Source of the DNA: Raillietiella orientalis
Lineage: Eukaryota
Direction: 5' to 3'
NCBI GenBank assembly: GCA_036172245.1
Contig: JAYWIR010000038.1
Span: forward strand, 496,001 to 560,000
DNA: 64,000 bases
Below the pieces are notes generated by a model. It saw only the letters and a list, made by a program, of their open reading frames with translations, was not told where the DNA came from and searched no databases. This document shows, piece after piece, positions 1 to 50,143 of the stretch; within the stretch, counting starts at the first letter, position 1, and each line of letters begins with the position of its first letter. A program made the translations under genes and the position numbers.

Positions 1-370
1 GTTCACGAGAGCGCAGCCTCCCACAAAAGCTCAGTGCCGATGTTGTCGAGTGCAAATGCTCAACTCCGGACTCCTCCGATTAGGAGGAGGAGTCCCTTGA
101 CCTATGTCAAACCAAATGCCTTCGATCAAGAGGTGCCCGTGCACCAAATCGAGATGAGAGCTCTCTTGACGCATCTGCTGAGGATGCAACATGCCGATTT
201 CTTACCACGCTCCGTCCTTCCAAGGGCGGAGCGTGGTAAGTGGTAAGAAAGTAAGCGAGTGGCATTCTCTCCTGGCCACCGGCCTGCGCCCTCATGGTGA
301 GCGATACCTGCACAGGCTGGAGGTCACATTGTGCCTCACGGTTGAATCTCCAATCCACCGCGATACAGCA

Positions 371-19780: not shown

Positions 19781-19826
<46 letters not shown>

Positions 19827-24079: not shown

Positions 24080-24114
<35 letters not shown>

Positions 24115-24689: not shown

Positions 24690-25212
24690 TATCCTTCCTG
24701 TTCGCCTTGATTTCCGCGTTGCACTCCAGAAGAAGTTTAGCTATCTCGGTTCTGGTGAAAGCTGCAGCCTTCAGAAGAGGGGTGCGTCTCTCCGTTGTCA
24801 TCTCTCGCGTTCACCTTTGCTTTGTAGTCCAGAAGGAGCCTCAGAATTTCGTGGCTTGATTTCCTGGAAGCATTGTGAAGCGCGGTCGCACCATCCTTCC
24901 TCCTGGCGTTGACATCAGCGTTGTGATCCAGGAGCGCCTTCACTATGGGCAACCTTTGATTCATGCAGGCTACGTGGAGGGACGTTCTTCCGGCCTTGTC
25001 CTTTGCGTTCACATCGGCATTGCGCTGCAGCAACAGCTCCACGATTTCAACGTCTGATCCTGCGGATGCGATATGGAGTGCAGTTGTTTCTTTGTGCTTG
25101 TGCCTAATACTGATGTCAGCATGGGAATCCAAAAGGAGCTTAACGATTCCAAGGTTACTGTATTTGGCAGCGAAGTGAAGCAGTCTCGTTCCTTCCATGT
25201 CCTGTGCATGTT
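24690..25212 (-). pseudogene. Ankyrin-repeat protein fragment (~5 repeats), frameshifted and truncated
   Basis: LLHFAAKYSNLGIVKLLL, TALHIASAGSDVEIVELLL, TSLHVACMNQRLPIVKALL, TALHNASRKSSHEILRLLL; a frameshift near 24780 continues as (T)PLLKAAAFTRTEIAKLLL. The N-terminus of the predicted ORF is repeat-derived. Confidence 0.9.
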
Positions 25213-25945
25213 CTTCAAGATGGGGGGCACCCCGGAAGTGGGGGTCCGCTCTATGAATCCAGAAAGGCTCGAGAGTCCATTCCTCTAGCTCTTGGGGAGA
25301 GGATTGCACCTCCCACCCTGAGGGACACCCACCTGATAGGGTGGTCCTCTCCATTTCATCTTCTCGGAAGGGGACCCGGAAAGGATCCGCTAGCAGGAAT
25401 TTCTTCTCCGGAGGGAACCCGCAAGGGAACCGTTCCTGTTCACTCCTCTGAAGAGAACCCCGAAGGGACGCTTCCGAAACTCAGAAGGGGCGCTGCAGTT
25501 TCCCGCAGGGGAATCGCTCTCGCTTGCTTCCTTGCACTCTGTGAGGAGGCGACGGCTCGGAGGGACCCCCAACAGGGGGGTCCGCTCCTTTGAACAACTG
25601 GAGAGGTCCCTGTGAGGGCTCCTGCTCTATCTTGAAACCGGAGGGATCCCCCCGGTGTGGGTGGTCCGCTCTCCGTTGCACGACCGGAGGGGGAACTCCC
25701 CACTCCTTTATTCCTGGAAGGACCCGAAGATCAATTTCCCATTGTTCCGGCCTTCATCGGGGCCCTCCGGCTTAATCCACCGTCGGTGCCACTCCCGAAT
25801 GATTAGGCCAATCAGCGCCATCTTACAGGAGAAACTCGGAACCCAAACGACGCAGTGGCGTCAGTTTCTGCCGGAGTGTTCGATCCCGCGACGCATGGTG
25901 CCACACACGGAGACCACCGTAACCACACAGCCTCCGACGCGGGCC
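25213..25945 (-). mobile_element. tRNA-headed dispersed repeat, copy 6, abutting the ankyrin fragment
   Basis: High-identity inverted match to 21820-22565. Confidence 0.8.
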
Positions 25946-28789: not shown

Positions 28790-29060
28790 TTCCTCCTGGT
28801 TACGCCGGGGCGTTTATTTTAAAGATAAACTTACACTTTTGGTGGGACTTCTGGTCCTACCACGTGCTCGTGTTCCATCGGATCTGCCATTTCGGGCCCG
28901 ACGCCAAGACAAGGGGATTGGGGAAGAACAAAAAGAAATCAAATTAAAAAAAGATCCGGGGTTCGGGAAGGGACCACACTTCGGCGCGTGACGTCGCATT
29001 CATCCTCTGCAGGATGCTGGCAAGTTCGTTCCGAATACTTCACAGATGGAGCCATCCCGC
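28790..29060 (-). mobile_element. LINE 3' end fragment
   Basis: Reverse complement GAACTTGCCAGCATCCTG...AATAAACGCCCCGGCGTAACCAGGAGGAAAA. Confidence 0.75.
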
Positions 29061-29089: not shown

Positions 29090-29283
29090 GGAATTTCGCC
29101 CGGGCTCGCCAAGGCGTTTATTTGTTAAAAAAAATAAACAATACAAAAGTGGAAAACCTTCCAGGAATGCGGTGCGCAGACCGGCGAGGATGGGGAAGGG
29201 ATAGAATAAAAGAAAATAGAAATAAGACGTAAACACAGATAAAATAACTTTGGGGTGCACGGGAAGAGATTACAGCATGCTAG
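29090..29283 (-). mobile_element. LINE 3' UTR/tail fused to the BRX1 fragment
   Basis: Reverse complement GTAATCTCTTCCC..CACCCCAAAG...AATAAACGCCTTGGCGAGCCCGGGCGAAA. Confidence 0.7.
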
Positions 29284-29615
29284 GGGTCGTGAGCAGAACC
29301 CGAGCTCCGCCATGGTGTGTATATTCTGCACGAGGAATTTCGCCGAGGGACCTTCGCCGACGTTGGAGATCCACAGGTAGAGGTCGTCGCGCTTCTTGCA
29401 CTCGAAGAACAGGCACTTGTTGCAGTTGCGCACCTCGCAGACCTCGCCCAGGACAGACAGCGTCCCCTTCCGCTCCATCTTGGGCTCCTTCTTGCTGTGG
29501 GGCAGCAGCTGGCGCGGGTCCTTCATCAGGTGCCGGTTTCGGGAGGTGATCCCCCTGCTGGAGAGCACCAGCACGCGCTGTTTGTTCGTCCATCTGCCTC
29601 TTTTGACTGCCGGCT
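29281..29615 (-). pseudogene. BRIX1: Intronless fragment of ribosome biogenesis protein BRX1 (Brix domain N-terminus)
   Basis: WTNKQRVLVLSSRGITSRNRHLMKD..LLPHSKKEPKME..EVCEVRNCNKCLFFECKKRDDLYLWISNVGEGPSAKFLVQNIHTMAEL; the conserved KMTGNCLKG is replaced by GFC, and similarity stops after SRPL. Confidence 0.92.
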
Positions 29616-29899
29616 GGTCCGAGTGTCTTGCGGCTGGTACCACTTCTGCACCCTCCTAATCGTTCACATTTTTTGTCTGGCATCATTCCTCTTTTCCGTT
29701 TGGTTTTCATAATGTCACTCATCAACTGTAAATACACGGTTTGTATCACAGCGTGTTTAACTGTCATGCCTTCTTCCCGAAGCAGACCCTGTGCATTGCG
29801 GTGCGCGAGGACCGTCTAATTGGGCAGCTTCTTCTCGAGTGGTCCAACTCCATCCACCTCGTCTTCACCAACGCTCACCGAGCGGTCGGCTGCGCCACA

Positions 29900-30464: not shown

Positions 30465-33400
30465 CCTCAACGTCCGCCTGCTGTCGGGTGACAAGTGGAC
30501 ACAGGCGCATCGCGTGCAGGTCAGCGAGCTGCGTGCATTTGTGAATGCATACAACTTGCTAGCGGGCGAACCTGGGATGCACGGGGCCATTCATCATGCC
30601 TTCCTTGGCGAACACCTGTGTTGTCGGGTGGGCAATCGATGAAGGGCCAGTCGGACCTTCGGTTCTCTCGGACCATCCCAGGTTTGAGCTCGAGCTGCGG
30701 CTTCCAGAGCCGGGGCCGCCCATCAGCATGTGGAAGATACCCGGCTATTGGTTTAGTCTCCCGGAAGCTGTGGAAGTTATTGGCTTCACCATTCGTAGGC
30801 TCGAGGATTAGAACCTGTTCAAGGTGTCGTTCCGAGATTTCTGTGAACGCTGCCCAGTGGCTCTCCTTCGGGATTTAGATTCGGAGAGCGGGAGCACTGC
30901 AGCCGAGCTTTTCTGAAAGCGCGCGCCCTCTGCAAACACCCCAACGTCCTGAGGCTGACCTAAGGCCGGAGCCGAGCTCCAGGTCTGGCAGCTCGGGGCA
31001 GCTTTCCTGCTGGACGACCAAGGCCAGGACCGCTGGCCCCCTCAGATGTCCTCTGGTTGGGGAGCGATTTCTACTCACCCTGTACACATGGGCACCGGTG
31101 AAGCGCATCTTTTCTTCCTCATTGCTGGACCTGAGCTGTAGGGGAAGCAGAACGAGCTCTCCCAGAAGAGCCGCTCTCGACACCGGAGGTCACCACCAAC
31201 ATTCGAGAGATCAAGGAAAGGAAAGTACCAGCGGAGGAGGACGGTATGCCAGCAAAGTCTTCCCTGAGCTTCGCGGAGGAGCCTGATCCCCTGGTACAGA
31301 GGTCAACCGTACTGATGAAAGAGAGACGCGAGGTGTCAGTCTCTTTGCGGTCATCCACAGAACGCCTCATCCCAAAGGAGGAGATCAGAGCAAACTGGGC
31401 GATTGGCGTCTGATTACTCTGGCGAATACGGAAGTCAGACCGCTCCCCTAAAGGCTGCGGACTGCGCGGCGGGGACGGGCGTCCGACTCCTTCACCAACC
31501 CATAGGGGACTTTTGCTGTGCCGGGAAGAAGGATGCTGTCGGCTCTGCCCCTTGCGCGGACCGGCTGCGGCTGCTCCGAAGGGTTACAGGGGGAATCATA
31601 GAAAAAGGAAGCTCCGGAAGGGCCCGGGAAACGGAACTCTCGGTTGGTCGGAGGAGCCTGGTGCTTCGGCGATCCCGGTCGACCTCCACGGGGCTTCCGA
31701 CTGAGTGAGGCAGAAGCTCCTGCAGAGCTTGGACTTTTCCTGCTGCCTGCTGCATCCCTGGTGCTCACCCTGGCTCCCTGCGCCAATCAACGGCAGTTTC
31801 AGCCATTTCGGCGGTCGCCGCTCTCACGGCGGGCCGAGAAAGAGAGTAAGGAAAGCGCGGCCCGAGTCCCACCTTGTTAGCACCTACTTCGAGTTGGCGC
31901 TGGGAAGGTGTAGGCACCAGATCACGGACCGATCTGCTGACGTTCTGCCCGTGCACGCCGGACGTGGCAGCATACGCCGACGATCTGCTTCTCCTGCTTC
32001 TCAGGACCGCCCCGGAGACTGAGCACGAGGAATCCTTCGAGCTGGTTTGCCGCTCCCCGGACCATCTCGAAGGACATCCGAGGGGGTCGAGAACCCACGC
32101 CGGGGGGCGATGTGGGTGGAAATACAGGCAGAAGTTGACGGTCGTCCCAGTGGGAGTGTCGTTGAGGGAGCAGCTGGACTGGATCTGCCTGAGGACCACC
32201 ACGGGCAGATGCTTCAAGTTCTTCAGTGTGTCTATGGGCGAATTCTGCGCAGCAGCAGCGACAGAGCCCTCCACCAGTTCTCAAAGGAACCGAGGCTGTA
32301 CTCCCCTCTGGAACCGGAGCTCTTTCGTTGCCTCTCTCCTCGGGCCCTTCGTTTTTGCCTTTGTTCCCCTCCCATCAAGGTGAGACAAAGGGCTAACTGA
32401 CAGTCGAGGAAGGTCCTTTGGAGCACTTTGTGACCCTGCGTCCCCCTGAAGGACATTGCAGTCCCATGGTGGGATGCGGTTCTCGGCATCGAGATGTGAG
32501 GAACGTCAGGAGCTCCACCGACGTATCTTGCGCGTGAACAGCCGCCCTCAAAGTCGACCAAGGACATCGCAGTCCATTCACAGGTGCGGGAGCGATGCGA
32601 TCGCCTCCCACCTGCCCACATTCTGGAGAGACTCTTCCCTTCTTGACGTGATGAAGACGCTCGTTGCAAGGGGTACCCCAGTGCAAGAGGAACACCGCGA
32701 AATGTTGCCACCGGAGGGAGTGCACGGAACTCTTCAGGCACAGGGAGGAGATGCATAGTTCTTCAGGTGACACACGCAAAGTTTCAGCTCACCGGGAAAG
32801 TCCCTTCGCCTGAGAACATGGCGGACAGCACTTTAAAGCTGCATCTGCCTAGGCGTTTCTCCATTCCCGCGATGATGCAGGAGAACTCCCAACTAGCCGG
32901 TAAGTCTGGTTGCAGGAAACCGTTTGCACGTAAGCCAAGAACAGCGAAGCCAGCCCGGAGATGCGGCAGTGACTGCTGCACTCTTACAACAACCGCTCGC
33001 TGCAGGACGAGTCATCGTGCAGCTCATCACGTGTGCGCGGGCTCAAAGCACCCTAGCTGCGGCACCGTCCTCCTCAGGAGCACCTGGGAAGTAACCAGCT
33101 GGTCAAATAGGAGGTCAGCTGCGAAATCAGTCAGAAGACGAAGGAACTAGGTGATTGGACTACGGGCCAGCTCACGGACGCTGCGACCCCCAGTGCCCCA
33201 TCGAAAGGACCATTGCGCTGGGGTGAGCTCCAGAGTATCCCACAGGAGGACCTCGAGTGGCCCCCAGCGCTGAAGAACAGACGAGTCCTCCCCCAAAAGT
33301 GGCAGAAGTCGACACTTTCCCGTTGCACTGGGCCTCCCATGCAACGCCCTCAGCTCTCACTAGACCCGGGGGACAGTGGACCCCAACTGTTGCAGATGCC

Positions 33401-33970
33401 GGAAACGTAAATCCCAGCTCCCGCACCTGCTTGTGCACTGTGTTGTCCTCCAGTCCCTGTGGTCGCGTTACGCAACTGCCCTTGGTGCACCGATGGACAA
33501 TCCCAGGGACGTGATGAAGCGCCTCTTCGTGCAAGATGTCCTTTCGCCTGCCGCATCCCCAGCATATCTTTGATGCTGCCTACCGGGGATTGTGGTAGTC
33601 TAGAGTCACGCGAGAGGAGGACGACGCGATAGGAACGCCATCGGCTTTGCCCTGTGCTTCCTGCGGACGACATCAAGATGGCCCCACCCGGGGCATACTC
33701 AGATGGAACTTGCCGACATCCTGGAAAGGATGCAGAGGACACCCTCCAGCGAACAGCAATCCCTTCCCTTGCTCCCAGAGTTTTTTTTTTTACTATTGGT
33801 TTCTATTTATTTTCATTCTTGTTTGCCCCTTCGCTGCCGAGGCGAACCTCGCCGTCCTGCGCCTCGGTTCCTCGACCAGTTCCGAACAGTTTTCTGACGA
33901 TGTAGGGCCGATGACCCTCCATATATATGTTTATTATTTTTTTATAATAAACGTCTCAGCGTGACCTAGT
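30465..33970 (+). mobile_element. Degenerate L1/Tx1-like LINE ORF2 (APE endonuclease, reverse transcriptase, C-terminal Cys region) with 3' tail
   Basis: LNVRLL (APE start), IPVDLHGASD*V (D..KAFD-like), INGSFSHF, AAYADDLLL at ~31967-31993, HLLVHCVVLQSLW..DVMKRLF near 33420-33530; many stops and frameshifts. Confidence 0.85.
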
Positions 33971-34619
33971 GATGAACCATAATTTGCGAGTTTAATTGAA
34001 TTTTAATTAACTTCGGTGCGTGACCGGGTGACAAATCCGAACCTAGAGAGGCCGCACAAGAATGTGCTGATCCCCGGATGACAAGAGCGAAACCCTGGGA
34101 CAGCGCCCTCCCACCAGTTCCGGAGCCGTGCTCCTCGTATCGGAAGATGGTTCTCGGAGCGATGGAGAGACGGACGCGGACACAATCGTCCGATTGTGTC
34201 CGAGCCCAATTGTCTTGAGACTGGACACTATTACGACCGACAACGCTACCGATAGATAAGCGGATGTACGAGAAGAAATGAGCTGCGCTCTTGTAGAGGG
34301 CGCTCTTCTCCACTAGGAGGCGCTTCCCGGACCCGGGGATCCTTGAAGGGCACACGAAGTTCCCTGGAGGCGATGCGAAACCATTGACTGCTGACAACGA
34401 GGTCGATATCTCTCCCCCAAAGTGCATATGGCACCCCTCTCCCCTCCTCACTCGCCTTCCTTCAGCCCCTTCCCCTTCCTCTCTCCGCGGAGATTGAGGA
34501 TCGAGGAACGTGGGATGCAGCGAATTCTTCTCCTTCCTTCGCGGGACTTTAACCTTCGAAATTCGAGGCGGAAGTGCTGCTGGTCCATGGGCAAGGAAGG
34601 TCCATGGGAGGAAGGGCTT

Positions 34620-35045
34620 TTATTGTCGGGGGAGGTCGCCGTGTATGAGGTATATGGTTTCCGTCCCCCTCAGCAGATCCCTCACCTGGGTGGCCTTCAG
34701 CTTCCAGTACATCAGCGCCAGGTAGATGAGGTGGGCGGCTCCCTGGAACTCGAGTTTTTCATCGTCCAAGGTGGCGGAGAACGACTTCACGAATTCGGAA
34801 AGGTCGAACTTGCAGGCCCACACGAGGTTGTACACGTCCCGAACTTGCCGGAAACCCCTGCGGGAGAGCAGTTGAAGGATTCGACTGCTGACCCCGGGAA
34901 TAGTGTCCACATCGTCGAAGACGTCTCTGTCCTCGACGAAACTCCAAAATGCCTCGGAATTGAAAATCTCGCGATTTCCGGGGTAGCTCAGGACCTTGGG
35001 ACGGATCTGCGTGACCACCAGAAGTTCCTGGAACGCATCTGCCAT
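34620..35045 (-). CDS. Divergent BAF (barrier-to-autointegration factor)-like protein, 141 aa, single exon
   Basis: ATG-initiated open frame. SEAFWSFV..VDTIPGVSSRILQLLSRRGF..V..KFDLSEF aligns without gaps to recalled human BANF1 residues 4-63 (13/60 identical by hand count, hydrophobic pattern and HhH Gly kept). Confidence 0.68.
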   Translation of the reverse strand: MADAFQELLVVTQIRPKVLSYPGNREIFNSEAFWSFVEDRDVFDDVDTIPGVSSRILQLLSRRGFRQVRDVYNLVWACKFDLSEFVKSFSATLDDEKLEFQGAAHLIYLALMYWKLKATQVRDLLRGTETIYLIHGDLPRQ

Positions 35046-35820
35046 CGAACAGGAAGACCAGAGGAGAGAGCAGATTTGCAGCAGAGATGCTAGGGTACAG
35101 AGGACGAATTCGGAAGTCGGGGATGGCGAGCAGCTGAATGCTCAGCAAGGAACGAGTTGTATGCGGCTGGAACTGGGTGGGGTGGTTGTTACAGGGAAGG
35201 CATCGGAAGAACGGAAAGCTTTGACGCACTTCAGAGAAGAGGAATGTTGCCTAGGAAACCACATAAGCATTACACACTTCGGTTTCGAGACCCCCATCTT
35301 CATCCGAATGCAGAGCAAGTCAGTAACGATCAGAGAAAACTCAGAGCACCATTGGGATGAGTCTCCAGTTGCCTCCTTCTGAGAGGTTCAGTCTCTGTTG
35401 CTCGATGGCATGGAGACGGCTGCTCGCCCATGAGTTTCTCGGGATTCCCATGAGAGAGACTCGTCCTCTGCCTGCCTCCTCTTTAAGGGAGTATCGAACC
35501 TCTGAGACACTTCTGAGCTTATCCTCAGACGTCGAAGCGAGATCGCACCTCCCCACGCAACTCCTTTTTTTTTTGTACGAGGAACCTTCGCTCTTCCGCA
35601 AGATGCCTTGCCTCGTGGACCAACATCAGACGATCGGTTCACTGTGCTCTTTTTCTGGGCACAACATCTGGTTTGATCTTTTCAGGGACTCTGGAGCTCC
35701 CGCCGGAAGCCGGAGTGGAGGCTAGTGAGCCAAAGCAGGGACAGCGGAACTTGATCTGGCGCAGATCCGGGCGTAGCGGATCCTCTAGAGAGAATTCCTC
35801 AGGGATGTCCACGACTCAGG

Positions 35821-35876
35821 GAGGAGGAGGAGGAAGGAAGGAAGGAGGGAAGGAAGGAGGGAAGGAAGGAGGGAAA
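35821..35876. repeat. GGA/GGAA purine microsatellite
   Basis: Read directly. Confidence 0.9.
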
Positions 35877-36307
35877 GTCACATGTGACGTTTCTTTTCGA
35901 TAGTGCATAGTTGTGATGATCGGGTTGAATGTCATCCGCGGGAGCAGAAGGATGTTGGAATGGAAGCCAGTCGGCCAAAAAAGGAGCCTGAAGGACGGCA
36001 GACGATCCCGAAAAAGAGGGCGGGGAGTTCTTCCTCAACAGGTGACAGCTCAACAGACGTCCTGACGATGCGCTGGAGGCCCTGAGAAAAAGAGGAACTT
36101 GGAACCGCCCGCAGCGACTGCAACGCTGTCCATCGAGATAGCAGCACTCGTTCCGTCGCCCACGCTTCCTCCGGCTGCGCGCTCCGTAGGAAAGGCCTTC
36201 CCCCCTTCCCCCCTCCTCTTTTACATCCCCGCAGGATAGCATCACCCACGCAGCACATGGCCGACGCTCAGAGACAGGCAAATGCTCTCTGCGGGACCGT
36301 CGCAGCG

Positions 36308-36607
36308 TCACCTCATATCAGGAGGCATCGGTTCGTGCCAGTGAGACGCGGTTCGAATCTCTCGCCCTTTCGCGGAGCCTCCGGGTTGAAAGTTCGTCTG
36401 GCGAGCAAGACCGGGAAGCAGTGAGTCCCCGTCAGTCTCTCCGTCCTGAGTCTCGAAAGCGAGACGATGAGCAGCCCGCGGAACTGAGCATCCGGAGCGA
36501 CGTGCGAGGGATTCCGAGAGCAGCTGAGATGCAGCGGGGAAGAGAGGAAGAAAAGAGACGCTTCCTTGCAATGGTGTATTGTTTTTTCTGGAATTTTCGG
36601 ATTGCAT
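36308..36607 (-). pseudogene. Degenerate BAF-like unit
   Basis: LPLFPAASQLLSESLARRSGCSV is in register with VDTIPGVSSRILQLLSRRGFRQV of the 34620 ORF. Confidence 0.35.
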
Positions 36608-36654
36608 GAGTTAATTCTGGAGGCAGGGAGAGACCGACCTATGATGGCGCCTTA

Positions 36655-37008
36655 CTACACTTCATTAGCCCTCTCGATGTGGAGATAGAGCAGCGACAAG
36701 AATACCATGCTCATACTTCGTAATAAAATTGTTGCGATGATATTTCGAGGTATGAATCTCAATACGAAGGTTTCCAAGCTAAAATGGCACAACAGCCACA
36801 GGGAGTATAGCTGCTCGATGGTGAAGACCCCTTGACTCTCCAGTACTGCATTCAGGATCAAATTCATCCCCGGTATCTGCGATATCGGACTCTTCATAGA
36901 TGTGCACTTGCAAAAAACATCGAAAGACGGGGAATAGAAATCTGTTTGGTTTTCCACGTAGTAGAGCACTGTTCGCTCGATGTCCTTCAGCCGTTCTATG
37001 GTCAGCAT
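36655..37008 (-). CDS. Divergent BAF-like protein, 117 aa, single exon
   Basis: ATG-initiated. Gap-free alignment to BANF1 (10/56) and to the 34620 ORF (15/57: S,F,F,IPG,L,G,Y,L,C,F,L,FV), counted by hand. Confidence 0.65.
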   Translation of the reverse strand: MLTIERLKDIERTVLYYVENQTDFYSPSFDVFCKCTSMKSPISQIPGMNLILNAVLESQGVFTIEQLYSLWLLCHFSLETFVLRFIPRNIIATILLRSMSMVFLSLLYLHIERANEV

Positions 37009-39414: not shown

Positions 39415-40186
39415 TTCCCCCCGGTTGAGTCAGGGCGTTTATTTATAGAAAAATAAACTTACAAGTCTGTGGCAGGACCATTGGTCCTGCCACGTTACAG
39501 ATGTAACCATGGGAACCTGCCGAGAACCGGCACGCAGGTCGGCGAGGTTCGCCCAGGCAGCAGAGGGGAGGAAGGCAAACAATAACAAAAATGCATAAAA
39601 GCATAAATATATACAAGAAAATTTGTGGGGGGGGAGGGTTGGGAAGGGATCACCGGGTGCTGGAGGGTGTCCTCTGAATCCTCTCCAGGATGCTGGCAAG
39701 TTCCTACTTTATAATTCCCAGATGGAGCGAGCAACTTGCAAGATCAGAGAAATGGATGGCATCCCTGTCGTCCTGGCCTCCTCTGGCGCTGCTCCAGGAC
39801 GCCATAATCCCGAGTGAGCAGCAGAGTCCTGCTGAGGGTGCAGTCGGCGTGAGGGCGTCGCGCAGGAAGGGACGCTTCATAACGTCTCTGGAAATACCTT
39901 CGGGAAATCCGCAGGAACGCCGCAAAGCGTTCTCACAAGGGACGGAGGGCAACACAACCCACAAGCAGATGCAGGAGGGACTCTTTCTCCACACCTGCGG
40001 CACTTTGGGCTTGCACTCCCCCGGGTCCAGTGGCGCCGGCAGGCGTTGCGCGGGAGGGAGGCCCCGATGCAACAGAAGGATCGCCGACTCCTGCCATTTT
40101 AGGGGAGGGTGGCACTGTTCCAGAACTCTGGGAGATACTGCACCTCCTCCGGAGGAATTTGTAGCAGCTCTGCCCAGCGTAGCAGT
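39415..40186 (-). mobile_element. LINE 3' fragment
   Basis: ESLLHLLVGCVALRPL..RDVMKRPFLRDALTP; tail AATAAACGCCCTGACTCAACCGGGG. Confidence 0.8.
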
Positions 40187-43100
40187 CCTTTATTTCCACC
40201 CGCTCACGCCGGAACGTTTAGTGTACAAAAAATTATTTACGAAATAAGTCACATCAAGTACAAAAAATGCCTTCCTCCGTGGTGGCTTCACATGACCACT
40301 ACGAGATGCCTCGGAGGCGCTGCTTCTCGGGAGCAGCTCCCCCGATGAGGTCCACACTGGAGGAGCAGGGCAAGGGGTAAGACACAAGAAAAACACACAC
40401 AAGAAAAACACAAAAGTGGAGTTTAAAAAATGTTGGGAGGAAAGGGAAGGGATCACAGGTTTATTCCTGGGGTCTTTAGCATCCCCTGGAGGGTGTTGGC
40501 AAATTCCTCTTCCTCTTGTTGCCAGAGATGTGGCCTTCCTCACAAAGGAGCAGACGATTGGGATGACCTCACCGTTCGACTGGCCCCTTTCGGCGCGGCT
40601 TCTCGCCGCCACCATCCCACGAATGCATCACAGAACTGCAAGGGAGGAAGCTGCAGGCGACATCGAGTCGCGTGCGAAGAGGCGGCGCAAGACCTCACCG
40701 TCATTGTCCGCGGGGAGTGGGAGGGCCGCAGCGAAGCGTTCCCGGACGCTCAGGAGGGCAACGACACAATCGGACAACCGGTGCGGGGGAGAGGGTTTCC
40801 CGTTCCTCGCACCTGGCACAGTCTGGGTCCGTACTCCCCCCTGTCCAGTGCGTTGCATGGGATCGCCCTGCGAAGCAGCTGCAATGCCGAGTCCCGGCAC
40901 TCCAGGGGAAGCGTGGAGCTGTCCACACACACTGGAAGTACTTCTGCCTCTTCAGGAGGAATATCCAGGAGCTCGGCACGGCGACGAACTCCGTCGGGGA
41001 AGGCGGCGAGTGCGGAGGTGTCAGCCAGTTGATGCTACCGTCCAGCATCCCAGCTGCTTCTATTTTCCCGCGATCTCGCCGGATAATTGCCATCTTGCAA
41101 GGTCACCGCCGTGCCCATTTCGTTGTATTGTGTTGAGGGTGTCCGCAAGTGGGGTGTTCCGCTAGCTGGCTGTCTTCCATGGACAGCCCACGATTTCTTG
41201 CAGCGAGCAGCGAGCGCAGTTCGAGAATCGCAGTCATCGCGATGGCTCCGGGCGCGTGCCGTTTCTTTCCACCCACGCCTGACCCGTTTTTTTTTTCCAG
41301 ACCTGCAGTAGCAATCCTTTCAGTGGGACACTCGGGATGGCAGAGTCTTCCAGCTCCCGAGTTGTCCACGCACCCAGATGTTTCTTCCTGTTGTACACCT
41401 CGCATCCTATCTTGATCGAAGACTGCTGTCCCTTGCTTCCCTTAGGCGAGGTGAGCCTTGTCCACCGACAAGGTGAGCTGGAGCAAGGGAGGTGAACGAA
41501 CATTATCCAAGATGTGGCGGCATCCGCCAATTCGTTGGTTGTCCAGCCGTACAGGGGTCTGGTCAGTCCTGCAGTGTCTCAGAAGGGACTTCCGCCTCGC
41601 CGGTAGTCTACTGTCGTCGCTTGCCCTTAGAGCAGTCAGAGCTGTGGCAAGAGGTGCGCCGGTCAGGGTCCTCAACTCTTTCGGATCCTGAGGCACCTCT
41701 CTTGAAGGATGGCTGACGGAGAGTCGCAGGGGGCGGAGTCCCACCTGCGCGCATTACTTCGCATGCATTCCAGGATGGGCGGGATCGAACCGTTCTCATG
41801 AGGAGCACCTGGGGCGAAGTGTGGCCTTGCACACACTTGAATTCAGCGCCACCGCTGCCACCAGCAGCGACATGCAGTCCTTCGGCGCTCCAGTTGCCCT
41901 CAGCAGCCCGACCGGGGAATTGGTGCCACTCAGGCAGCAACTGGGAGGAGACCGCGTCCTGGGTTCCGTCCCAATGAGGACAGGCCCTTTCTCATGCGGA
42001 AGACGACGTGGGAGAGGGAGCCCCTTCTCTTCCCGTCTACAGGTTTCCGAACTCTTCATTTCGGGAGGCGTCAGCGACGGCGCTTCCCTTCTCGGCGGAC
42101 CCCTGGGAAGAGCAGCCGGTCCTCTGGAGCGCCCTGCAATCCGTCTGGGTGCGCCCTACCTGCTCACACAGCTCCTGAAGCTCAGGAAGCTGGCGGGAGT
42201 CTTTCGCGCCCTGCTTGCAGCCATCCTCGTGAGCGCAAGCAGGGCGTCGCCTCCCGGGTGGACCTAGGGGGCGTCTGGAGGAAGACCTCAGGGACGGCAA
42301 GAGCTGCCCCTTCGGAAGTACCGTGACCCCTTGATACAAGGCCGTCGGCGGCGCCGTGACGAACCTCACCGAGGGCACATGGCTCCTCTTCTCCAGGAAG
42401 TGCGGAAGCCTTGTCCATCTCTTCCTCGGAAACAGGCAGGTGGCCCGGGTCTATATGCAGCTGAGCTTCCGCACTCTTTGACAGCCCCTCATCCTGCTAC
42501 CCTTCCTCTCCGTGCCAAGCGCAGGAGGGAGGTCATGGCTTGGACCGGTCGCCGCCGCTTCAGCAGCAGCAGCGGACGGGTTCTCTGGAGAACGCCTCCG
42601 ATCCGCAGCACACCGAACCGATCACCCTGGTGGTGGTCCACGACACCGTTACCCATCCAGCACGGTGGGCTGTCTTCCCGGGAGAACCCACCCTCCCGGA
42701 CCATGACGACAGCCGCTTCCTGCCAGCAGAAATCGCCGTACCACCCTGGTGACTCCAACGTTCCTCCGTGGGTGAAGTAGGGCAGCTCCGCGGCTGCACT
42801 GCCGAAGTCTCACCCACGTGGAGGAGGCGCCGTGCCGATTCGGGCATTCGCCGTAAATCTTTCATGAACCTGCACACACTTGCAGGGTCGCATCCCTCCT
42901 CAGGCCGCACAGAAGACGGACGGTGCGTGCGACCTGCCCCATTGGTTTGGACCGAGTCCCTCGTAAGGGCAGACTCATGCTCAAGTGGTCCATCGTCGTC
43001 CTTAAAGTCCACCCTGCCGCTTCCAGTCCCACGGAACAGGGTGGTGGTGCTTCCAGAGGGCTTGGAGCGAGACCAGCTGCACTTGGGGAAGCCCTTTGGG

Positions 43101-44850
43101 ATCCTTCTCTTTTCGCTGCCTTCCCCCCAGCTGTTTCCCCCCTTTTTCTTCTGGGTTTTCTCTTTTTTGGTCCTTAAGGGATGCTGAAGAACCGTCCGTC
43201 TCGTCAGGGAAGGCTCTCGGAACTCTCCTTTAACGCGGTTCACGCCATCCGAGGGTGTGTGACTCTTCAAGGATAGGAGGTGACCCCGGAGGGACCACCA
43301 CGTGAATTCAGGAAGGCTCCAGTGGGAGGAGTCCTTTCCTCACTTACAGTTGGTAGGAGAACCCCGCAGGAAATCTCCTCTTTCTTGTTCTATCCGGAGG
43401 GATCGCCCGGAATAAGGGAGCGCTCCTCGTTTCTTCTCCGGAGGGCATCCTCAGGGGAACCTGGTTTCTCCCTATGAAGAGACGCTTCCCAATTTCTCTA
43501 GGGAACGCCTTCCCGAAGGCAGCTGCGCTCTTCTTCTCGACACCCTGGAGGTTGGTCCTCCATGGCATGCGATGAAAGGTACTCCTCCGAGGGAGGAGGG
43601 AAGGGCTCCCTTTTCACAACCGGAGGGGGAAACCCCAAAGAAGCTCCTTGAGCTGTCCTGGAAGGACTCTGGAAGGTCAGCTTTCCACCCCGGCCAGTCA
43701 ACAGGGGCATCTGGCTTCCACCAAAAGCAAAGGAGCCACCGCGCTACCCCCCCTTAGGAAACACATGGGCAGCAGCCTCACGGCTAGATGGGAGATCACT
43801 GTGGAAACCTCCGGAGGGAGAAAAGGACTGGGCGAGTGGACGACGGACCAGCTCACTGACGCTGCGACCTCGAGCGCTGGATCTCATGGACTTTTGCTCT
43901 GGAGCATGCTACGGGGTATTCCAGAGGAAGACTTGCAGTAGCTTCCGGTGTTCATAAACACCCGCACCCTCCCCTTAAAGTGGCAGGAGTCGGCGTTGAT
44001 GCTGCTGCGCTGGGGCTTCCCGTGCAACTCCCGCCGGCATCATTGGACACGGGGAGGGGGGGAGTGAACCCAAACCGTTCAAGCTGCGGGGAGAGGGAAT
44101 CCTTCCCGCACCTCCTAGTGGACTGTGTTGCCCTCCGACCCCTTTGGGAACGTTTTGCCGCAACCCTTGGAGCCCCCGGCAGCAACTCTAGAGACCTTCA
44201 GAAGCGCCTCTTCCTGCGCAACGCCCTCACGCCGACCGCATCCCTCCCTAGCAGCACTTTGCTGCCCACGCGGCGGGACCGTGGCTGCATGGAGCAACGC
44301 CAGAGGATGTCATAATGACAGGGACCCCATCTACTTTTCCATCCTCTTCATGAGGACAGCGTCAAGATGACCCCACCTGGGAGCCTTGAAACAGGAACTT
44401 GCCGACATCCTTACAAGGGTGCAGAGGACACCGTCCAGCACGCAGTGATCCCTTCCCGAACCTCCCATTTCTTGACTTTACGTTTTTCGGTTTCTTTTTT
44501 TTGTTTCTTTCCCCTTCCCCTGTGTTGCCGAAGCGACTCTCGCCAGCCTGAGTGCCAGATCCCGGCAGGCTCCTTCTCGTAGTTATAAGCAACGTGTCAG
44601 GATCAAACTTCCTGCCACGACGTGTGTATTTATTTTTTATAAGTCAGTGTTCCGATGTGACCGGGTGTCTACTAGAAATATTATGGTTTAATGTGCCAAC
44701 CAGCTCCATCCTGCGGGGGAGACTCTCAGTCCACGATGCGCACCCCGTTGTCGTCGTCGGTCCTTCCCCTGGCGGGATTCGAACCCACCCCGCTTGGAGA
44801 CCACGCACGCAAAGGCAGCAGCCTCACGACCTCCGAGGGCGGACACTTGG
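40187..44850 (-). mobile_element. Internally deleted LINE: tRNA-like head, 5' leader, ORF1-like region, endonuclease remnant, C-terminal Cys region, tail; no RT core seen
   Basis: B-box at 44774-44785; leader homologous to the tRNA-headed repeat (44850-44690, resuming ~43740-43150); DPDCARCEERETL..LSDCVVAL..VLRRLFARD at 40.7-40.85 kb; tail at 40191-40220. Confidence 0.62.
43760..44670 (+). mobile_element. 5'-truncated LINE nested within the leader of the minus-strand element
   Basis: SCGERESFPHLLVDCVALRPLWERF..DLQKRLFLRNAL; ends GTGACCGGGTG; both flanks belong to one contiguous tRNA-headed leader. Confidence 0.8.
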
Positions 44851-46850: not shown

Positions 46851-49800
46851 TAAAAATGCGGCTCGAGAGAGACTTCCCTCGAGGTGTGTGTCTGGGCAGG
46901 GGAACGTATCCAGGCCGTGGGCTGCCGGTTGTCTAGGGGTTCTGAAGAAACTGGTCCGAGATGAGGTGTTTCGAGGAGGAAGGGGAGGAGGTAGCAGCGG
47001 ATGCAGGCAGCACCGCCGGCCTCTGGCTCTTACACCAAGGCGCGTGCGTGCCTGTCCCGTCCGTCGGGGGTTTTCATCCTCTCACACCGGAGAATCTTCC
47101 GTAAGATCTGATTCGCCAAGAAACTGTCAATCCATAGAAAACGTCAGTCCTCCCCAGGGGGAATGCAAATCCCACCACGCCGCTACAGTGCAGGGGAAGG
47201 TTCTGCTCGCGAGAGGATTGGTCAGCGAAGTCCACAAAGGGGAAGGAATCGAAAAAAAAAAAAAAGGACATAACAAAATTGCCTTTAAAAAAAGACCATG
47301 GGGATAAAGGGGTAGGGAAGGGAAGGCATGACAGCCACCTTCCTGGAGTCCTGGGCACCCTCTACAGATGCACACAAGCTTGTAAGGTAAGGGCTGAAGC
47401 CATCTTGTCACCATCCTCGGAGAAGGTGACACAACGGGGTTGGAGTCCATGTTGGTTTGGAAACTCAGGAAGGGGTCGGGTTCTCTCGACCTTTTTGCAA
47501 ATAACTGTCCCTCCTAACCCTTTTCCCGAACTCGAAAGGGTCATTCGCGACCTCTTACCTCTTTCTCGCTACTTGCGGGTCGGCTTATCCGGCCAGGGTG
47601 CGAGCGTCTTTTACAGCCTCCTGAGCTCAAGGTCCCGAATGGCTGTCTCGTGGGTACCTGTAGTATACACTGAAAGGATCCAGTTCTCCTTATTCCCGAC
47701 CTCACGGCTCTTGCCTCTAACAGACCTGTGCGTCGCTGCTCTCAGAAGTCCACATGTCTTTACTTGGAAGCGTGAAAGACGAGATGTGAACGGACGACCC
47801 TGCTCAACCGGGTGTCAAACTCTCGTGCCCGTGGTGGTCGCACTTGCGTAAAGACTGCAAAAGTGCAGACTGATACTCTAAGATGTCAAGTTATGTTCTT
47901 GTATCAGTTTTCGGGCCTCTATTCTGGCGCATCGCAAGCATTGCCCCCCAGATGAACTTCTGGAAGCAGCAAATCGTACTGAGATTCCTCAATTCTATTG
48001 AAACGATTTCCGACTACAGTTTTTGAGGAGTGGGTTTAGGGTTGGAAATGCCGGACGTGCTGTACGGTCAAAGTCGCCATGCTCTTTGACCGTACAGCAC
48101 GATTTCAGCTTTTTGCTTTGACGAGGTTCGCAGCAAAAGTTATTCTTTCACGACCAAAAAGCAAGGCAAAGAAGCCATATGCAGACTCCAGAACTCCGTG
48201 AAAGGGAAAGTTATGAGCTAGGTAGGTTTTGATAAAGGTTCCAGGTGTTTGTTAGGAAATTTGTAGATAGCATGAAGGCACTGCTTCGTTTCGGCTGAGC
48301 TCACGAATGCCTACCGCTGAAACGTACATCACGTCATGCTTTCAAACCGCTGTCTTCGTACAACCATCGTGTACGAAGACAGCGGCTGTTCCTTCAGTTT
48401 ATTCATGGATTACCATGCAGTTACGCTGGTGTGTCTCTTTTATGAGTGATGCTGCTGCGGTATCAATGCAGCAATCTACTTGTGAGAATACAAAATGTTT
48501 GAAAATATAACATGCTTGATAGTTTTCCACGAGTCTTTGCTTAGAACCTTTTTTTTGCTTCTTAGGAACTCATAGATGTGAATGTTCTCTCGAGCTGATC
48601 ATGCTTTGCAATTTTCGATTACATATAAACTAGAAATTTGCAGAATGATCTTCATAAAAGAAATATTTTGGAAAAACATATCGTTTCCTAATAACTGTAA
48701 CTATTAAAAGCTCAGCATTATAATTGTCGCCTTGTTTGCTCACGATCGTTTCTAAAAAAACCTGAGCTATATGTGAAAGTGTTGCATTGAAGATGGTTCC
48801 TACATCAAATATTAGAGTCCAGATCTATATTCTCTTCTTCAAATGACTGAGCATTTTTGAAATTAGATATTTCTGATATCATTTCTACATCCTTGATTCC
48901 TTGATAGCATTCTTTTATAACAAAATTGCCAGTGAAATGAATTTTGCAATTGGCGTGAACTCGTTAAAGGCTGTAAGGGAGATAAATTTAAACTTATGCA
49001 GAGGAACAGATATGTGTAGTAACGCATAAAAACAGACCTATTCGGAATGAAGTGCATCTCCAGAATGAGTTGTGAACACACTTTGTTAGTAGTTTGTGCT
49101 GAAAACCAGTTTTGTCAGATTGCAAATGTGCATTACTTAATAGCGTTAGTTTTTACAGACTTATCGACAATCAATTGGAATTCATTAAAAATTCTGGAAA
49201 CTTATTTCAATAAACTGTATATAAATCGAAAAAATAACGAAATCATGAAAAACGAGAAGAAAAAAAAATGGAGATAAAATGTCCCTTGTCTGAAGAATAC
49301 TTGTGCGTGTCATGGAATACTAAATTGATACAATTTCATTTACAACAGTCAATGCAGAACTGTTTAGTAAATGATGTAAACTGCTTACCTAAACACTCAA
49401 CTCTTCACTGGGAGTAATGTTCGCTTTATAATGAAGACAACTGGTTGCATTTGCGCAAGGCAACCCTGTGCAATTGAAGCACGAGATGTACATGGAAAGC
49501 ATGTCTTGTAGTGATGCTTCCTTGCGTTGCTGGCCAAACGCTGCCTCAAGTGTTTTCGAGAACTTGCTTGCATGGACCGAATTGTATTCTTATTCCTATT
49601 ATGATTAGAAGATAATTGTGTATCGTGGTTAGATATTTCCATGTTTTATTATAGGTAATTCATTTTGAAGTATAACCGAGAATGCTGATTGTCAACAGAT
49701 CGAGTTTACCTATTAAATGCCAATGCTTTTGTTCCTTTGCATTGTTTGGTTCCATTGAATCACCTCATAAAATCTGGAATCAATCTGGGCAATAATCAAT

Positions 49801-50143
49801 TGTCATTTCTTTTGTGTGTGCAGAGAACTGCATTTGTTCCGTGGTAGTAGCGAAAGTTTCTTATTGCCTAAACCATTGGTAATCGAATCATTACCATTCA
49901 ATGTTGTATAAAACTCCAGAATAAGTAAAACAGCTCGAGACTGAATTGTTACTGAATTCTCACATTGCTAATTTCAAAATGAGTCTATTGCTTCCATTCT
50001 AAAAGGAAGTGAACACATGAATCTTGTGATGTAGAAAGAAAAAAACATTATTCCTTTGCAACATCATTCACGATTGTTGGATTGTTTAGAGGTAAGTGTG
50101 GAATGTTTCATTTCGAGACAGCCATGTGTTTATCGTAGTGGTG

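Follow-up and report, generated by a model that had tools for sequence, protein, structure and literature searches.

Two tandem, highly diverged genes predicted to encode BAF-fold proteins in Raillietiella orientalis

BAF is a central protein of animals. It cross-bridges DNA, and its other tasks are to reassemble the nuclear envelope once mitosis is over, to mend ruptures of the nucleus and to restrict DNA of foreign origin. Most accounts present a single, highly conserved protein of 89 residues together with a close paralog, BAF-L. An initial annotation of a 64,000-nucleotide stretch of R. orientalis DNA, referred to here as the window, had picked out two open reading frames, ORF1 and ORF2, as intact BAF-like paralogs. 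This locus raises the question of whether the two frames are genes at all, whether they belong with BAF, and what their products could do on DNA. Our verdict, which leans on structure prediction, is that they are real, highly diverged genes with a predicted BAF fold (Table 1).

Both frames run uninterrupted between the ends first given for them, and both lie on the minus strand, as judged by the ORF listing. They encode distant paralogs, with 25 of 104 aligned residues identical (24%; BLASTP, 35.4 bits, E 3e-8), a relationship detectable at the protein level only. Searching the whole window with each ORF by tblastn returned the other copy as the sole match (E 5.5e-5 and 1.6e-5), over a background in which the next best hit for either had an E of 1.6 or worse, giving two copies in the window. 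The length of these frames alone proves nothing, because ATG-initiated ORFs of 117 aa or longer abound in the GC-rich window, where they number 62 of 1193. Their codon-position GC content (GC1/2/3 of 0.59/0.35/0.75 for ORF1 and 0.42/0.31/0.61 for ORF2) follows the order GC3 > GC1 > GC2 in both cases, as it does in a BRX1-like exon, and looks coding. In addition, two copies so diverged would otherwise not both have stayed open and foldable, from which we infer that ORF1 and ORF2 are under selection. They are arranged as tandem, same-strand genes that are apparently intronless. We rejected the possibility that they are exons of a single gene: the ORF2 frame opens three codons 5' of the initiating ATG and closes where the predicted fold ends, and, reading the sequence, an acceptor-like site at the start of ORF1 is out of phase with a phase-0 donor at the end of ORF2.

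Table 1. Features of the ORF1-ORF2 locus, with positions counted from the first nucleotide of the window.
Feature	Coordinates	Strand	Description	Basis
ORF1	34620..35045	(-)	intact 141-aa frame, stop codon within coordinates; arginine-rich HhH	ORF listing and translation
ORF1 C-terminal tail	34620..34688	(-)	residues 120-141 and stop; low confidence, past the BAF fold	
ORF1 predicted BAF-fold core	34689..34970	(-)	residues 26-119, aligned to BAF chain 2..89; weak PF02961 match at 35-94	VIA-align
ORF1 HhH	34860..34910	(-)	residues 46-62, hairpin IPGVS; G51 = Gly25, S53 = Gly27	residue mapping and HhH alignments
ORF1 N-terminal extension	34971..35045	(-)	residues 1-25; predicted helix 2-19 and linker; without BAF counterpart	DSSP
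Spacer between genes	35046..36654	(.)	1.6 kb, unique sequence; no repeat copy, ORFs without Pfam match	self-blastn
(AGGAGGGAAGGA)n microsatellite	35831-35875		within spacer	TRF
ORF2	36655..37008	(-)	intact 117-aa frame, stop codon within coordinates; HhH without basic residue	ORF listing
ORF2 predicted BAF-fold core	36667..36945	(-)	residues 22-114, aligned to BAF chain 2..89	VIA-align
ORF2 HhH equivalent	36835..36885	(-)	residues 42-58, hairpin IPGMN; G47 = Gly25, N49 = Gly27; no Lys/Arg	
ORF2 N-terminal extension	36946..37008	(-)	residues 1-21; predicted helices 4-15 and start of 18-24	DSSP

ORF2 aligns to ORF1 without gaps across the segment of the weak PF02961 match (ORF1 residues 35-94), where the offset to BAF is 22 for ORF2 and 26 for ORF1. 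The paralogs share 28 invariant columns, 9 of which fall in residues 14-36 (ORF1 numbering), amounting to 39% of positions 14-36 versus 21% of positions 37-113. Conservation between ORF1 and ORF2 is highest in the N-terminal extension and lower in the HhH.

The gene pair lies in unique sequence, with the nearest dispersed repeat at 33141-33883 (self-blastn); local GC at the ORFs equals that of the flanks (0.55-0.56), and CpG o/e is 0.85, a value that speaks against a vertebrate. The spliced-leader motif of dinoflagellates is absent, and the BRX1 matches lend no support to a coccidian origin. Besides the weak BAF match of ORF1, a Pfam scan of the 456 window ORFs of at least 75 aa gave only two matches, one in an ankyrin ORF and one in a Brix fragment; it contained no other PF02961 match that could mark a canonical BAF, with the limit that exons shorter than 75 aa would escape it, and the neighbouring ORFs carried no viral hallmark or other Pfam domain. 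Within the BRX1-like piece of the window, which looks like an intronless fragment, the exon is at most 49-66% identical to proteins of animals, fungi and algae (among proteins of 309-2000 aa, a range that excludes shorter BRX1). In a 28-row tree the fragment fell outside a well-supported clade of plant, alga, labyrinthulid and fungus sequences and weakly beside animals, a placement that is unsafe given its very long branch (2.18) and the non-homologous tail residues in the alignment. At the 3' end of ORF1, reading the sequence, the stop codon shares nucleotides with an AATAAA (34619-34624) and the tail begins at a splice-donor-like CAG/GTGAGG (34681-34688).

By sequence, no method reaches significance for likeness to BAF. 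Full-length ORF1 and ORF2 produced no PF02961 row at E <= 10 in Pfam searches. Trimmed to residues 26-120, ORF1 scored 13.0 bits (E 0.16), below the curated cut-off of 25 bits, in a weak, gap-free match of residues 35-94 to profile positions 9-68 (offset 26); trimmed ORF2 had no PF02961 match. PDB sequence searches with whole ORFs, trimmed ORFs or a two-sequence profile never matched BAF. Fragments of ORF1 matched HHH_5 (PF14520) at E 0.064-0.21 (12.6-14.2 bits, under the 27-bit cut-off), and fragments of ORF2 gave no HHH_5 match. Searching ORF1 against a word index of 5.8 billion proteins yielded 45 candidates of near length, none at E <= 0.01. An exhaustive HMMER search of 1.84 billion representative proteins with the two-sequence profile found five matches at E <= 0.001 and no full-length relative; four of the five are long HhH-repeat proteins aligned at profile positions ~35-74 (E 4.6e-10 to 1.4e-6), and the fifth, a TPR/kinase protein, is probably spurious. 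No relative was found in IMG/VR scans with the paralog alignment and ORF2, or in JGI metagenome scans with the paralog alignment and ORF1. Absent from the protein collections searched, ORF1 and ORF2 thus appear to have been annotated by no one. In the ESM Atlas, 15 of 30 feature matches of ORF1 were PF02961-bearing clusters (score 0.91), and the top three rows for ORF2 were BAF-bearing clusters (0.89-0.90); unnamed clusters with viral members stood at rank 1 (23% PF02961, 'Viruses 50%') and rank 4 for ORF2.

We then compared predicted structures. The AF2 model of ORF1 had a pLDDT of 79.1 and a pTM of 0.75, with residues 128-141 below a pLDDT of 50. Foldseek against the PDB returned human BAF for all of its top eight hits (E 0.039-0.12, prob 1.00), followed by a hit at E 1.7. 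VIA-align superposed the model on 6ghd_A with Z 11.4 and an rmsd of 2.0 Å over 87 of 88 residues, the next unrelated chain reaching Z 5.9, and in an unbiased scan of 48,161 representative PDB chains the one chain at Z >= 8 was BAF (9j8m_K, Z 10.8). For ORF2, the best AF2 model (pLDDT 86.3) superposed on 6ghd_A with Z 11.0 and an rmsd of 2.0 Å over 86 of 88 residues; the other four models had pLDDT values of 71, 47, 46 and 43, such that two of the five exceed 70. Identity to BAF in the structural alignments was 14-19%. The second tier of structural neighbours comprised SAM-type oligomerisation domains (2rp5, Z 7.0 and 5.7) and T. brucei mitoribosome chains (Z ~6), and the viral structures of BFVD gave no structural match (best E 1.3). 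The AlphaFold input alignment consisted of the two paralogs only, the two models are not independent, and AlphaFold may be drawn to whichever known HhH fold is closest. We conclude that, for both ORFs, likeness to BAF is borne out over nearly the whole BAF chain in the predicted fold, and in that alone. The description of the pair as intact BAF-like paralogs thus holds for their integrity, their paralogy and their predicted fold, but sequence methods do not call them BAF.

The structural alignments also bear on the register against BAF. VIA ranges run from 25/26 to 119 in ORF1 and from 21/22 to 114 in ORF2, both against BAF chain 1/2 to 89, and therefore give an offset of 24 (ORF2, 20) at the N-terminus and of 30 (25) at the C-terminus. 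The structure would need about two extra residues near the N-terminus and four before the last helix; the alignment of ORF1 to 2ezx_A leaves exactly six model residues unaligned (89 aligned over 95), which fits insertions of 2 + 4. The gap-free register proposed initially is thus sound within the core but does not extend from end to end. The N-terminal extensions, first put at ~25-28 aa, come to 20-26 aa by the structural ranges, and ORF1 ends in a low-confidence C-terminal tail of 22 aa that the earlier account lacked.

Residues assigned from the core offsets agree with those first proposed. The Gly25 equivalent is kept (G51 in ORF1, G47 in ORF2), as both the weak PF02961 alignment and residue mapping indicate, and the mapping likewise places S53/N49 at position 27, Q58 L59/A54 V55 at positions 32-33 and N73/S69 at position 47, replacing Gly27, K32-K33 and Gly47. 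Position 6 is A32/S28, with the native residue lost in both; position 9 is S/V, 46 is Y/Y, 51 is A/L, 53 is K79/H75 and 54 is F/F, and position 75 falls outside the mapping because the register shifts. Compared with the BAF residues, positions 6, 9, 46, 51 and 54 are replaced in both ORFs. A serine matching BAF Ser4 had also been reported. One is present (S30 in ORF1, S26 in ORF2) if the core offset is extended N-terminally, but the structural ranges give an offset two smaller there, and the equivalence is uncertain because it depends on where the two-residue N-terminal insertion is placed. This serine follows the 20-26-aa extension, in a linker that joins two predicted helices, and has no Thr-Thr before it.

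What such replacements could mean can be judged against human BAF. In PMC2173821, Gly25 and Gly27 of the HhH hairpin are proposed to contact the DNA backbone; DNA binding is abolished or severely reduced by 6E, 25E, 27E and 46E, reduced by 27Q and partly impaired by mutations at 9, 51, 54 and 75, and mutants behave differently on 21-bp and kilobase DNA. Both ORFs keep one of the two hairpin glycines, the Gly25 equivalent, and replace the other, and at the sensitive positions 6, 9, 46, 51 and 54 neither keeps the BAF residue. By analogy with 27Q and 27E, S53 may weaken DNA binding by ORF1. The initial annotation had argued for weakened DNA binding and altered dimerisation in part from the loss of K32/K33 and G47. 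According to the same paper (PMC2173821), however, 32E and 33E bind long DNA normally, and 47E folds, gives a dimer peak and binds DNA, while losing emerin binding and forming weaker dimers. That K32/K33 and G47 are missing is therefore a weak argument for a loss of DNA binding or of dimerisation. The paper places the LEM-domain (emerin) binding valley at positions 25, 46, 47, 51, 53 and 54 (PMC2173821); only 25, in both ORFs, and 53 look retained, with 46, 47, 51 and 54 changed. PMC13443024 names Thr2, Thr3 and Ser4 of the N-terminal tail as VRK targets. Apart from the serine, nothing of this kinase target segment is retained in ORF1 or ORF2, and the proposal of a VRK1 site is fragile, given an N-terminal register uncertain by two residues and a serine that lies in an inter-helix linker, not near a free N-terminus.

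The two paralogs had been read alike, but they differ strongly in charge. The equivalent of BAF 18-45 contains five Arg in ORF1 and has a pI of 9.4, whereas in ORF2 it lacks Lys and Arg altogether and has a pI of 4.05. In ORF1, R55, R62 and R63 belong to the HhH and R66 and R69 lie just after it. Residues 45-74 of ORF1 matched an RNA-polymerase-alpha-CTD-like unit of a repeat protein (E 0.001 pairwise), and the HhH aligned to that of Dbh/Dpo4 at E ~1, which is not significant. The hairpin 'IPGVSSR' matches HhH units that have the second Gly replaced or that come from DNA-binding HhH families.

Could the fold serve another purpose? A BAF/SAM-like fold that serves only for oligomerisation or for contacts between proteins, with no role at DNA or chromatin, is unlikely. 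The whole cores are acidic to neutral (pI 4.84 and 6.0 for the two), SAM-type oligomerisation domains and a mitoribosomal protein are among the second-tier neighbours, and conservation peaks in the N-terminal extension and not in the HhH, all of which point that way; against it, the IPG hairpin is invariant between ORF1 and ORF2, and the HhH of ORF1 has a basic local charge and is similar to HhH units that bind DNA. Distinctly unlikely, by analogy with mammalian BAF-L, is the suggestion that neither protein binds DNA and that both act as decoys or modulators, which would heterodimerise with the organism's canonical BAF. As described in PMC13443024, BAF-L/BANF2 is ~53% similar to BANF1, has the same length, forms a heterodimer with it and shows weakened DNA binding. 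The BAF residues at 6, 27 and 32/33 are lost in both ORFs, ORF2 has an HhH without a basic residue, and 6E and 27E severely cut DNA binding among the human BAF mutants of PMC2173821. However, ORF1 keeps an Arg-rich HhH, the 14-19% identity of the ORFs to BAF contrasts with the ~53% similarity of BAF-L to BANF1 (PMC13443024), and positions 46, 47 and 51 of the interface helix are all changed, so that a canonical BAF is a less likely partner. The decoy also presumes such a partner, and there is none among the 456 window ORFs of at least 75 aa, although shorter exons would escape.

That ORF1 and ORF2 are not functional genes, having arisen as ORFs by chance or as (retro)copies now decaying in a region with many repeats and few genes, is very improbable. 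Long ORFs are frequent here, the window is nearly without recognisable genes beyond the ankyrin ORF and the Brix fragment, the BRX1-like piece has the look of a fragment without introns, an antisense ORF of 223 aa overlaps ORF1, and annotated homologues were not found in the 5.8-billion-protein index or the 1.84-billion-protein HMMER search. Yet both frames are open at 24% identity with GC3 > GC1 > GC2, both models are confident and show the same known fold, and neutral decay to such divergence would probably have broken both frames. A viral or mobile-element origin, with BAF-like genes captured or endogenised from a large DNA virus, has a very slim chance of being correct. The clusters with viral members among the ESM Atlas neighbours of ORF2 (ranks 1 and 4) and the apparent lack of introns are consistent with it, but the neighbouring ORFs hold no viral hallmark or other Pfam domain, IMG/VR contigs contain no relative, BFVD gave no structural match and GC is the same as in the flanks.

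The best explanation, which we hold tentatively and at slightly below an even chance, is that these are two real tandem genes for small BAF-fold HhH proteins with an extra conserved N-terminal helix, and that their branch has diverged beyond the reach of sequence profiles. This helix would stand where BAF has a free phosphorylatable tail and, with the N-terminus built differently, VRK-type N-terminal control as in BAF would be unlikely. The Arg-rich 'PGxSSR' hairpin of ORF1, like those of alpha-CTD-like and Y-family-polymerase HhH units, probably binds the DNA backbone without sequence specificity, and ORF2, having lost the basic surface, probably does not itself bind DNA. Both are probably dimeric, as is BAF, an obligate homodimer that joins two DNA duplexes; a dimer of ORF1 with ORF2, should they pair, would offer only one face to DNA and could bind it but not bridge it. 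There is a slim chance that the predicted structures represent an old, profile-invisible BAF branch with an N-terminal helix in which basic ORF1 and neutral ORF2 form a heterodimer in which one face alone binds DNA. This 'monovalent BAF', if true, would cover DNA or tether it but would not act as a bridge.

Measured against known systems, the predicted fold is like that of human BAF/BANF1 (PF02961; 6GHD, 1CI4, 2EZX, 7ABM, 7Z21, 9J8M) over 88-89 residues (Z 10.7-11.4, rmsd 2.0-2.2), and the ORFs share with it a small, single-domain build and an HhH hairpin with the Gly25-equivalent glycine. ORF1 also has the R-G-F triplet of BAF at positions 37-39. Unlike human BAF, the ORFs fall under the Pfam cut-off at 14-19% identity, have a helical N-terminal extension of 20-26 aa in place of the free Thr2/Thr3/Ser4 tail, carry ~4 extra residues before the last helix and, in ORF1, the 22-aa C-terminal tail, form a tandem pair, and have positions 6, 27, 32, 33, 46, 47, 51 and 54 all replaced. 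They resemble BAF-L as paralogs with a predicted BAF fold, and the neutral HhH of ORF2 fits a non-binding subunit, but BAF-L is an ordinary PF02961 member, whereas ORF1 and ORF2 are far more diverged and bear the extension. With alpha-CTD-like repeats (PF03118) and the thumb HhH of Dbh/Dpo4, ORF1 has in common the local pattern I/L-P-G-h-S/A-x-R...L...G-h...h-x-D-h, the second hairpin Gly being replaced by Ala in the alpha-CTD-like unit and by Ser in ORF1. Only this 30-residue HhH is common, however, and the whole-domain match is far weaker than that to BAF (Z 4.6 for the H. pylori alpha-CTD and Z 4-5 for Y-family polymerases).

BAF has been described as a conserved metazoan protein (PMC3198171). 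If our reading is true, ORF1 and ORF2 would represent a far more diverged form of the BAF fold that standard annotation has missed, with a structured helix in place of the phospho-regulated N-terminal tail, and structure prediction would have recovered genes of this fold that go undetected by Pfam and by exhaustive searches with HMMER. They would also form a natural pair in which one member has kept, and the other has lost, the basic DNA-contact surface, and which may thus probe which features of BAF serve DNA binding, bridging and regulation.

Both ORF1 and ORF2 run uninterrupted on the minus strand, at the positions tabulated below, in agreement with the initial annotation, which had called them intact. 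The window is GC-rich and long frames are frequent in it: of 1193 ATG-ORFs, 62 reach at least 117 aa. Dispersed repeats also give many look-alike ORF pairs that are 35–99% identical over short stretches. Unlike these repeat-derived pairs, ORF1 and ORF2 are 25% identical across 109 residues; BLASTP aligned them at 35.4 bits (E 3e-8), with 25/104 residues identical and one single-residue gap. When the whole window was searched by tblastn, each ORF matched only its partner (E 5.5e-5 and 1.6e-5; all else E ≥ 1.6), and the window holds no further copy of the ORF1/ORF2 DNA region, the closest repeat being 33141–33883. GC content follows the order GC3 > GC1 > GC2 in ORF1 (0.75/0.59/0.35) and ORF2 (0.61/0.42/0.31), as it does in the BRX1-like exon. 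We take the two ORFs to be real, old duplicates and infer that selection keeps their frames open. On the opposite strand, a 223-aa ORF with a GTG start (34422–35093, plus) spans all of ORF1 and matches nothing in Pfam; it probably reflects ORF1's high GC3 rather than a gene.

Features of the window and their positions
Feature	Coordinates	Strand	Description
ORF1	34620–35045	minus	141 aa, uninterrupted ORF
ORF2	36655–37008	minus	117 aa, uninterrupted ORF
Spacer between ORF1 and ORF2	1.6 kb		unique sequence
Ankyrin ORF	24740–25480	minus	247-aa open frame, at least 4 repeats, Pfam Ank E 1.5e-32
BRX1-like (Brix domain) piece	29128–29655	minus	intronless, Pfam match

On BAF identity (human BANF1, PF02961), sequence says no and predicted structure says yes. 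Full-length ORF1 and ORF2 gave no PF02961 row in Pfam even at E ≤ 10, and PDB sequence searches with the ORF proteins, trimmed pieces or the two-sequence (ORF1+ORF2) profile never matched BAF. ORF1 had no match among 5.8 billion proteins searched through a word index. With the two-sequence profile, exhaustive HMMER over 1.84 billion cluster representatives gave five hits (E ≤ 0.001) that include no full-length relative: long helix-hairpin-helix (HhH) repeat proteins, aligned at profile positions about 35–74, account for four, and the fifth is a TPR/kinase protein. The sole PF02961 match came from trimmed ORF1 (residues 26–120), at 13 bits and E 0.16, below the 25-bit cut-off. Among ESM Atlas language-model neighbours, 15 of 30 for ORF1 were clusters carrying PF02961 (score 0.91) and the top three rows for ORF2 were BAF-bearing clusters (0.89–0.90); at about 0.9, such scores give leads rather than proof, and the same holds for neighbouring eukaryote clusters that include diatoms or oomycetes.

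The AlphaFold2 models share one shallow two-sequence alignment as input, and AlphaFold training included BAF. ORF1 was modelled at pLDDT 79.1 and pTM 0.75, and ORF2 at pLDDT 86.3 and pTM 0.83 (other four models 71, 47, 46 and 43). The best eight Foldseek PDB matches to ORF1 were all human BAF (E 0.039–0.12, probability 1.00), followed by E 1.7. VIA-align superposed the ORF1 model on 6ghd_A with Z 11.4 (rmsd 2.0 Å, 87/88 residues aligned), the best unrelated chain beyond BAF reaching Z 5.9, and ORF2 on the same chain with Z 11.0 (rmsd 2.0, 86/88; next match Z 6.4). A Foldseek-independent scan of 48,161 representative chains with ORF1 found one at Z ≥ 8, BAF 9j8m_K (Z 10.8), the second-best scoring Z 7.0. 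The initial annotation was thus largely right to call the proteins BAF-like, since their predicted fold matches BAF.

The sub-threshold Pfam alignment pairs ORF1 35–94 with profile positions 9–68 without gaps, an offset (ORF minus BAF residue number) of 26; ORF2 aligns to ORF1 across that stretch, also without gaps, at offset 22. Profile positions were taken as BAF residue numbers, an assumption that the ORF1 model supports: G51 falls in loop 49–53 between two helices, like Gly-25, and N73 in helix 68–77, like residue 47 in helix 3, as described in PMC2173821. At these offsets the core residues agree with those first reported: Gly25 is kept, and Gly27, 32/33 and Gly47 are replaced. VIA-align paired ORF1 25/26..119 and ORF2 21/22..114 with BAF chain 1/2..89, so that the offset for ORF1 (ORF2) rises from 24 (20) at the N-terminal end through 26 (22) in the core to 30 (25) at the C-terminal end. 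ORF1 against 2ezx_A leaves six residues unaligned (89 in a 95-residue span), which fits 2 + 4 extra; the four precede the last helix, in low-confidence coil 91–96. The alignment is therefore gap-free in the core, ORF1 35–94 and ORF2 alike, and not, as had been claimed, end to end.

Residues at BAF-equivalent positions; apart from Gly25, Gly27 and Gly47, the native BAF letters are assumed, in part after the initial annotation
BAF position	ORF1	ORF2
6	A	S
25	G51	G47
27	S53	N49
32–33	Q58 L59	A54 V55
37–39	RGF	QGV
46	Y	Y
47	N73	S69
51	A	L
53	K	H
54	F	F

Equating a Ser with BAF S4 was over-precise: depending on where the two N-terminal extra residues are placed, the counterpart is S30/S26 or F28/F24. 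So was an extension of ~25–28 aa; in the models Ser30/Ser26 follow an extension of 20–26 residues instead of lying close to a free N-terminus, and they occupy a linker of two residues that joins helices predicted at 24–28 and 31–39 in ORF1 and at 18–24 and 27–35 in ORF2. VRK kinases phosphorylate Ser-4, Thr-2 and Thr-3 at the BANF1 N-terminus, according to PMC13443024; neither ORF sequence has Thr-Thr before the candidate Ser, whose conservation a helix cap would explain as well as a VRK site. Of 28 alignment columns at which the paralogs are identical, 9 fall in ORF1 residues 14–36 (39% of positions there) and 16 in residues 37–113 (21%), so the added helix and first BAF helix are the best-conserved part. 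Past the BAF fold, ORF1 has a 22-residue tail with pLDDT <50, which begins at a putative splice-donor-like CAG/GTGAGG (34681–34688); an AATAAA overlapping the stop codon (34619–34624) is a putative polyadenylation signal.

Human BAF mutants described by Segura-Totten et al. 2002 (PMC2173821) bear on these substitutions. Binding to long DNA is abolished or severely cut in 6E, 25E, 27E and 46E, reduced in 9A, 25Q, 27Q, 51E, 54E and 75E, and wild-type-like in 32E and 33E, whose failures in earlier reports were only with 21-bp DNA; on these data, altered DNA binding is best argued from positions 6 and 27, not 32/33. The 47E mutant is folded, gives a dimer peak and still binds DNA; its emerin binding is lost, its subunit exchange is abnormal and its dimers are judged weak. 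By analogy, the change at residue 47 would bear more on LEM-protein binding and dimer stability than on lost dimerisation.

Across the BAF 18–45 equivalent, ORF1 has five arginines (R55, R62, R63, R66, R69; pI 9.4) and ORF2 has no Lys or Arg (pI 4.05). In a single comparison, ORF1 'IPGVSSRILQLLSRRGFRQVRDV' matched one unit of P0002, a profile-matched protein built of RNA-polymerase-alpha-CTD-type HhH repeats (11/34 identical, E 0.001); the alignment of the hairpin segment with Dbh/Dpo4 HhH, at E about 1, is not significant. In the P0002 unit, as in ORF1, the second hairpin glycine is replaced and an Arg stands three residues on. The alpha-CTD contacts DNA through this Arg; ORF2 has Ile there. 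The Arg-rich, P0002-like hairpin of ORF1, set against one without basic residues in ORF2, leads to differing expectations from sequence: DNA binding may well persist in ORF1 and is probably absent from ORF2. The decoy or weakened-binding interpretation offered earlier seems plausible for ORF2 and doubtful for ORF1.

The surrounding window is eukaryote-like, rich in repeats and nearly devoid of recognisable genes, with CpG o/e 0.85 and TpA o/e 0.5, unlike vertebrates. Pfam was run on 162 of 163 stop-to-stop ORFs of at least 120 aa (ORF2's own frame being scanned separately as ORF2) and all 294 ORFs of 75–119 aa, at thresholds of 1e-3, 1e-4, 1e-5 and 1e-5. It matched only the ankyrin ORF, whose closest database relatives are just 37–47% identical, and the Brix-domain piece; Rfam had no match in the window. 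The BRX1-like part (29137–29655) spans only about residues 35–155/228 of a 320–350-aa protein; similarity stops sharply at about 29300, T-rich sequence with AATAAACGCC comes next, and the window yielded no further part of the gene. Either a retrocopy left this fragment, or it is one exon of a gene whose other exons are short or diverged. Its identity to BRX1 of animals, fungi and algae is at most 49–66% (proteins of 309–2000 aa searched), and it cannot safely be placed in a tree.

Among the repeats, a dispersed ~64–78-nt element that ends in GGGAAGGGATCAC and can form a hairpin internally (…GCATCC…GGATGC…) recurs in both orientations at seven places (4533–4596, 18278–18355, 28960–29037, 33705–33768, 39636–39713, 44394–44457, 63488–63565); it belongs to a ~700-nt repeat (33141–33883 vs 43823–44550, 68%, and vs 39512–40191, 64%, inverted) and may be a MITE, a SINE or a regulatory signal. 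Another repeat, of at least 550 nt, has two copies 23 kb apart (40187–40685 and 63241–63734, continuing to about 41160 and the end of the window) that are 90–100% identical; the ORFs spanning them are 93–99% identical, with no Pfam domain found. tRNA-like pieces with GGTTCGAATCC (9683–9725, 14624–14666), inside repeats ~4.9 kb apart, suggest tRNA-derived SINE-like repeats; ARAGORN also predicts a 92-nt 'tRNA-Pro' (10115–10206, minus) that Rfam does not confirm. Pure plus-strand poly(A) tracts at 19784–19825 (42 nt) and 24078–24111 (about 34 nt) resemble retroposed-element tails, and 371–510 is a tandem repeat of a 20-nt unit, TGCAACCCACGGCAACAATG (7 copies, 97% matching). GC peaks at 66% in 6000–10000, where many long ORFs (≤441 aa stop-to-stop) overlap in several frames on both strands without a Pfam match. 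A block at 48000–52000 has 35–37% GC, against 47–66% elsewhere, with a sharp edge near 47.8 kb and no ORF with a Pfam match.

We tentatively propose that both genes encode BAF-fold HhH proteins that would form dimers, in which ORF1 would retain non-specific DNA-backbone binding, ORF2 would be a partner or variant that does not bind DNA, and a structured N-terminal helix would replace BAF's phospho-switch. A pure protein-interaction module, with neither protein acting on DNA, seems unlikely to us. We give still less weight to the two being decoys of canonical BAF in the manner of BAF-L (BANF2, its mammalian paralog): no canonical BAF was seen in the window among ORFs of at least 75 aa, a scan that short exons would escape. 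Least probable are non-functional ORFs, common as long frames are here, and, on a par with these, genes derived from a virus or mobile element, for which viral contig and viral structure searches found no viral context. For the dimer-forming pair, an ORF1–ORF2 heterodimer with a single DNA face would be an attractive extension.

ORF1 and ORF2 are predicted to fold like BAF, and would work like it, but miss the PF02961 sequence threshold. One hairpin glycine is missing from both, as are a free N-terminal tail and most of the DNA- and LEM-contact residues that were mapped; for these reasons we class them neither with ordinary PF02961 proteins nor with BAF-L. Literature searches on BAF/BAF-L heterodimers and protist BAF homologues turned up no description of extended, profile-invisible BAF-fold proteins. 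BAF is described in PMC3198171 as a conserved metazoan protein that is absent from yeast, which is why the host taxon matters here.
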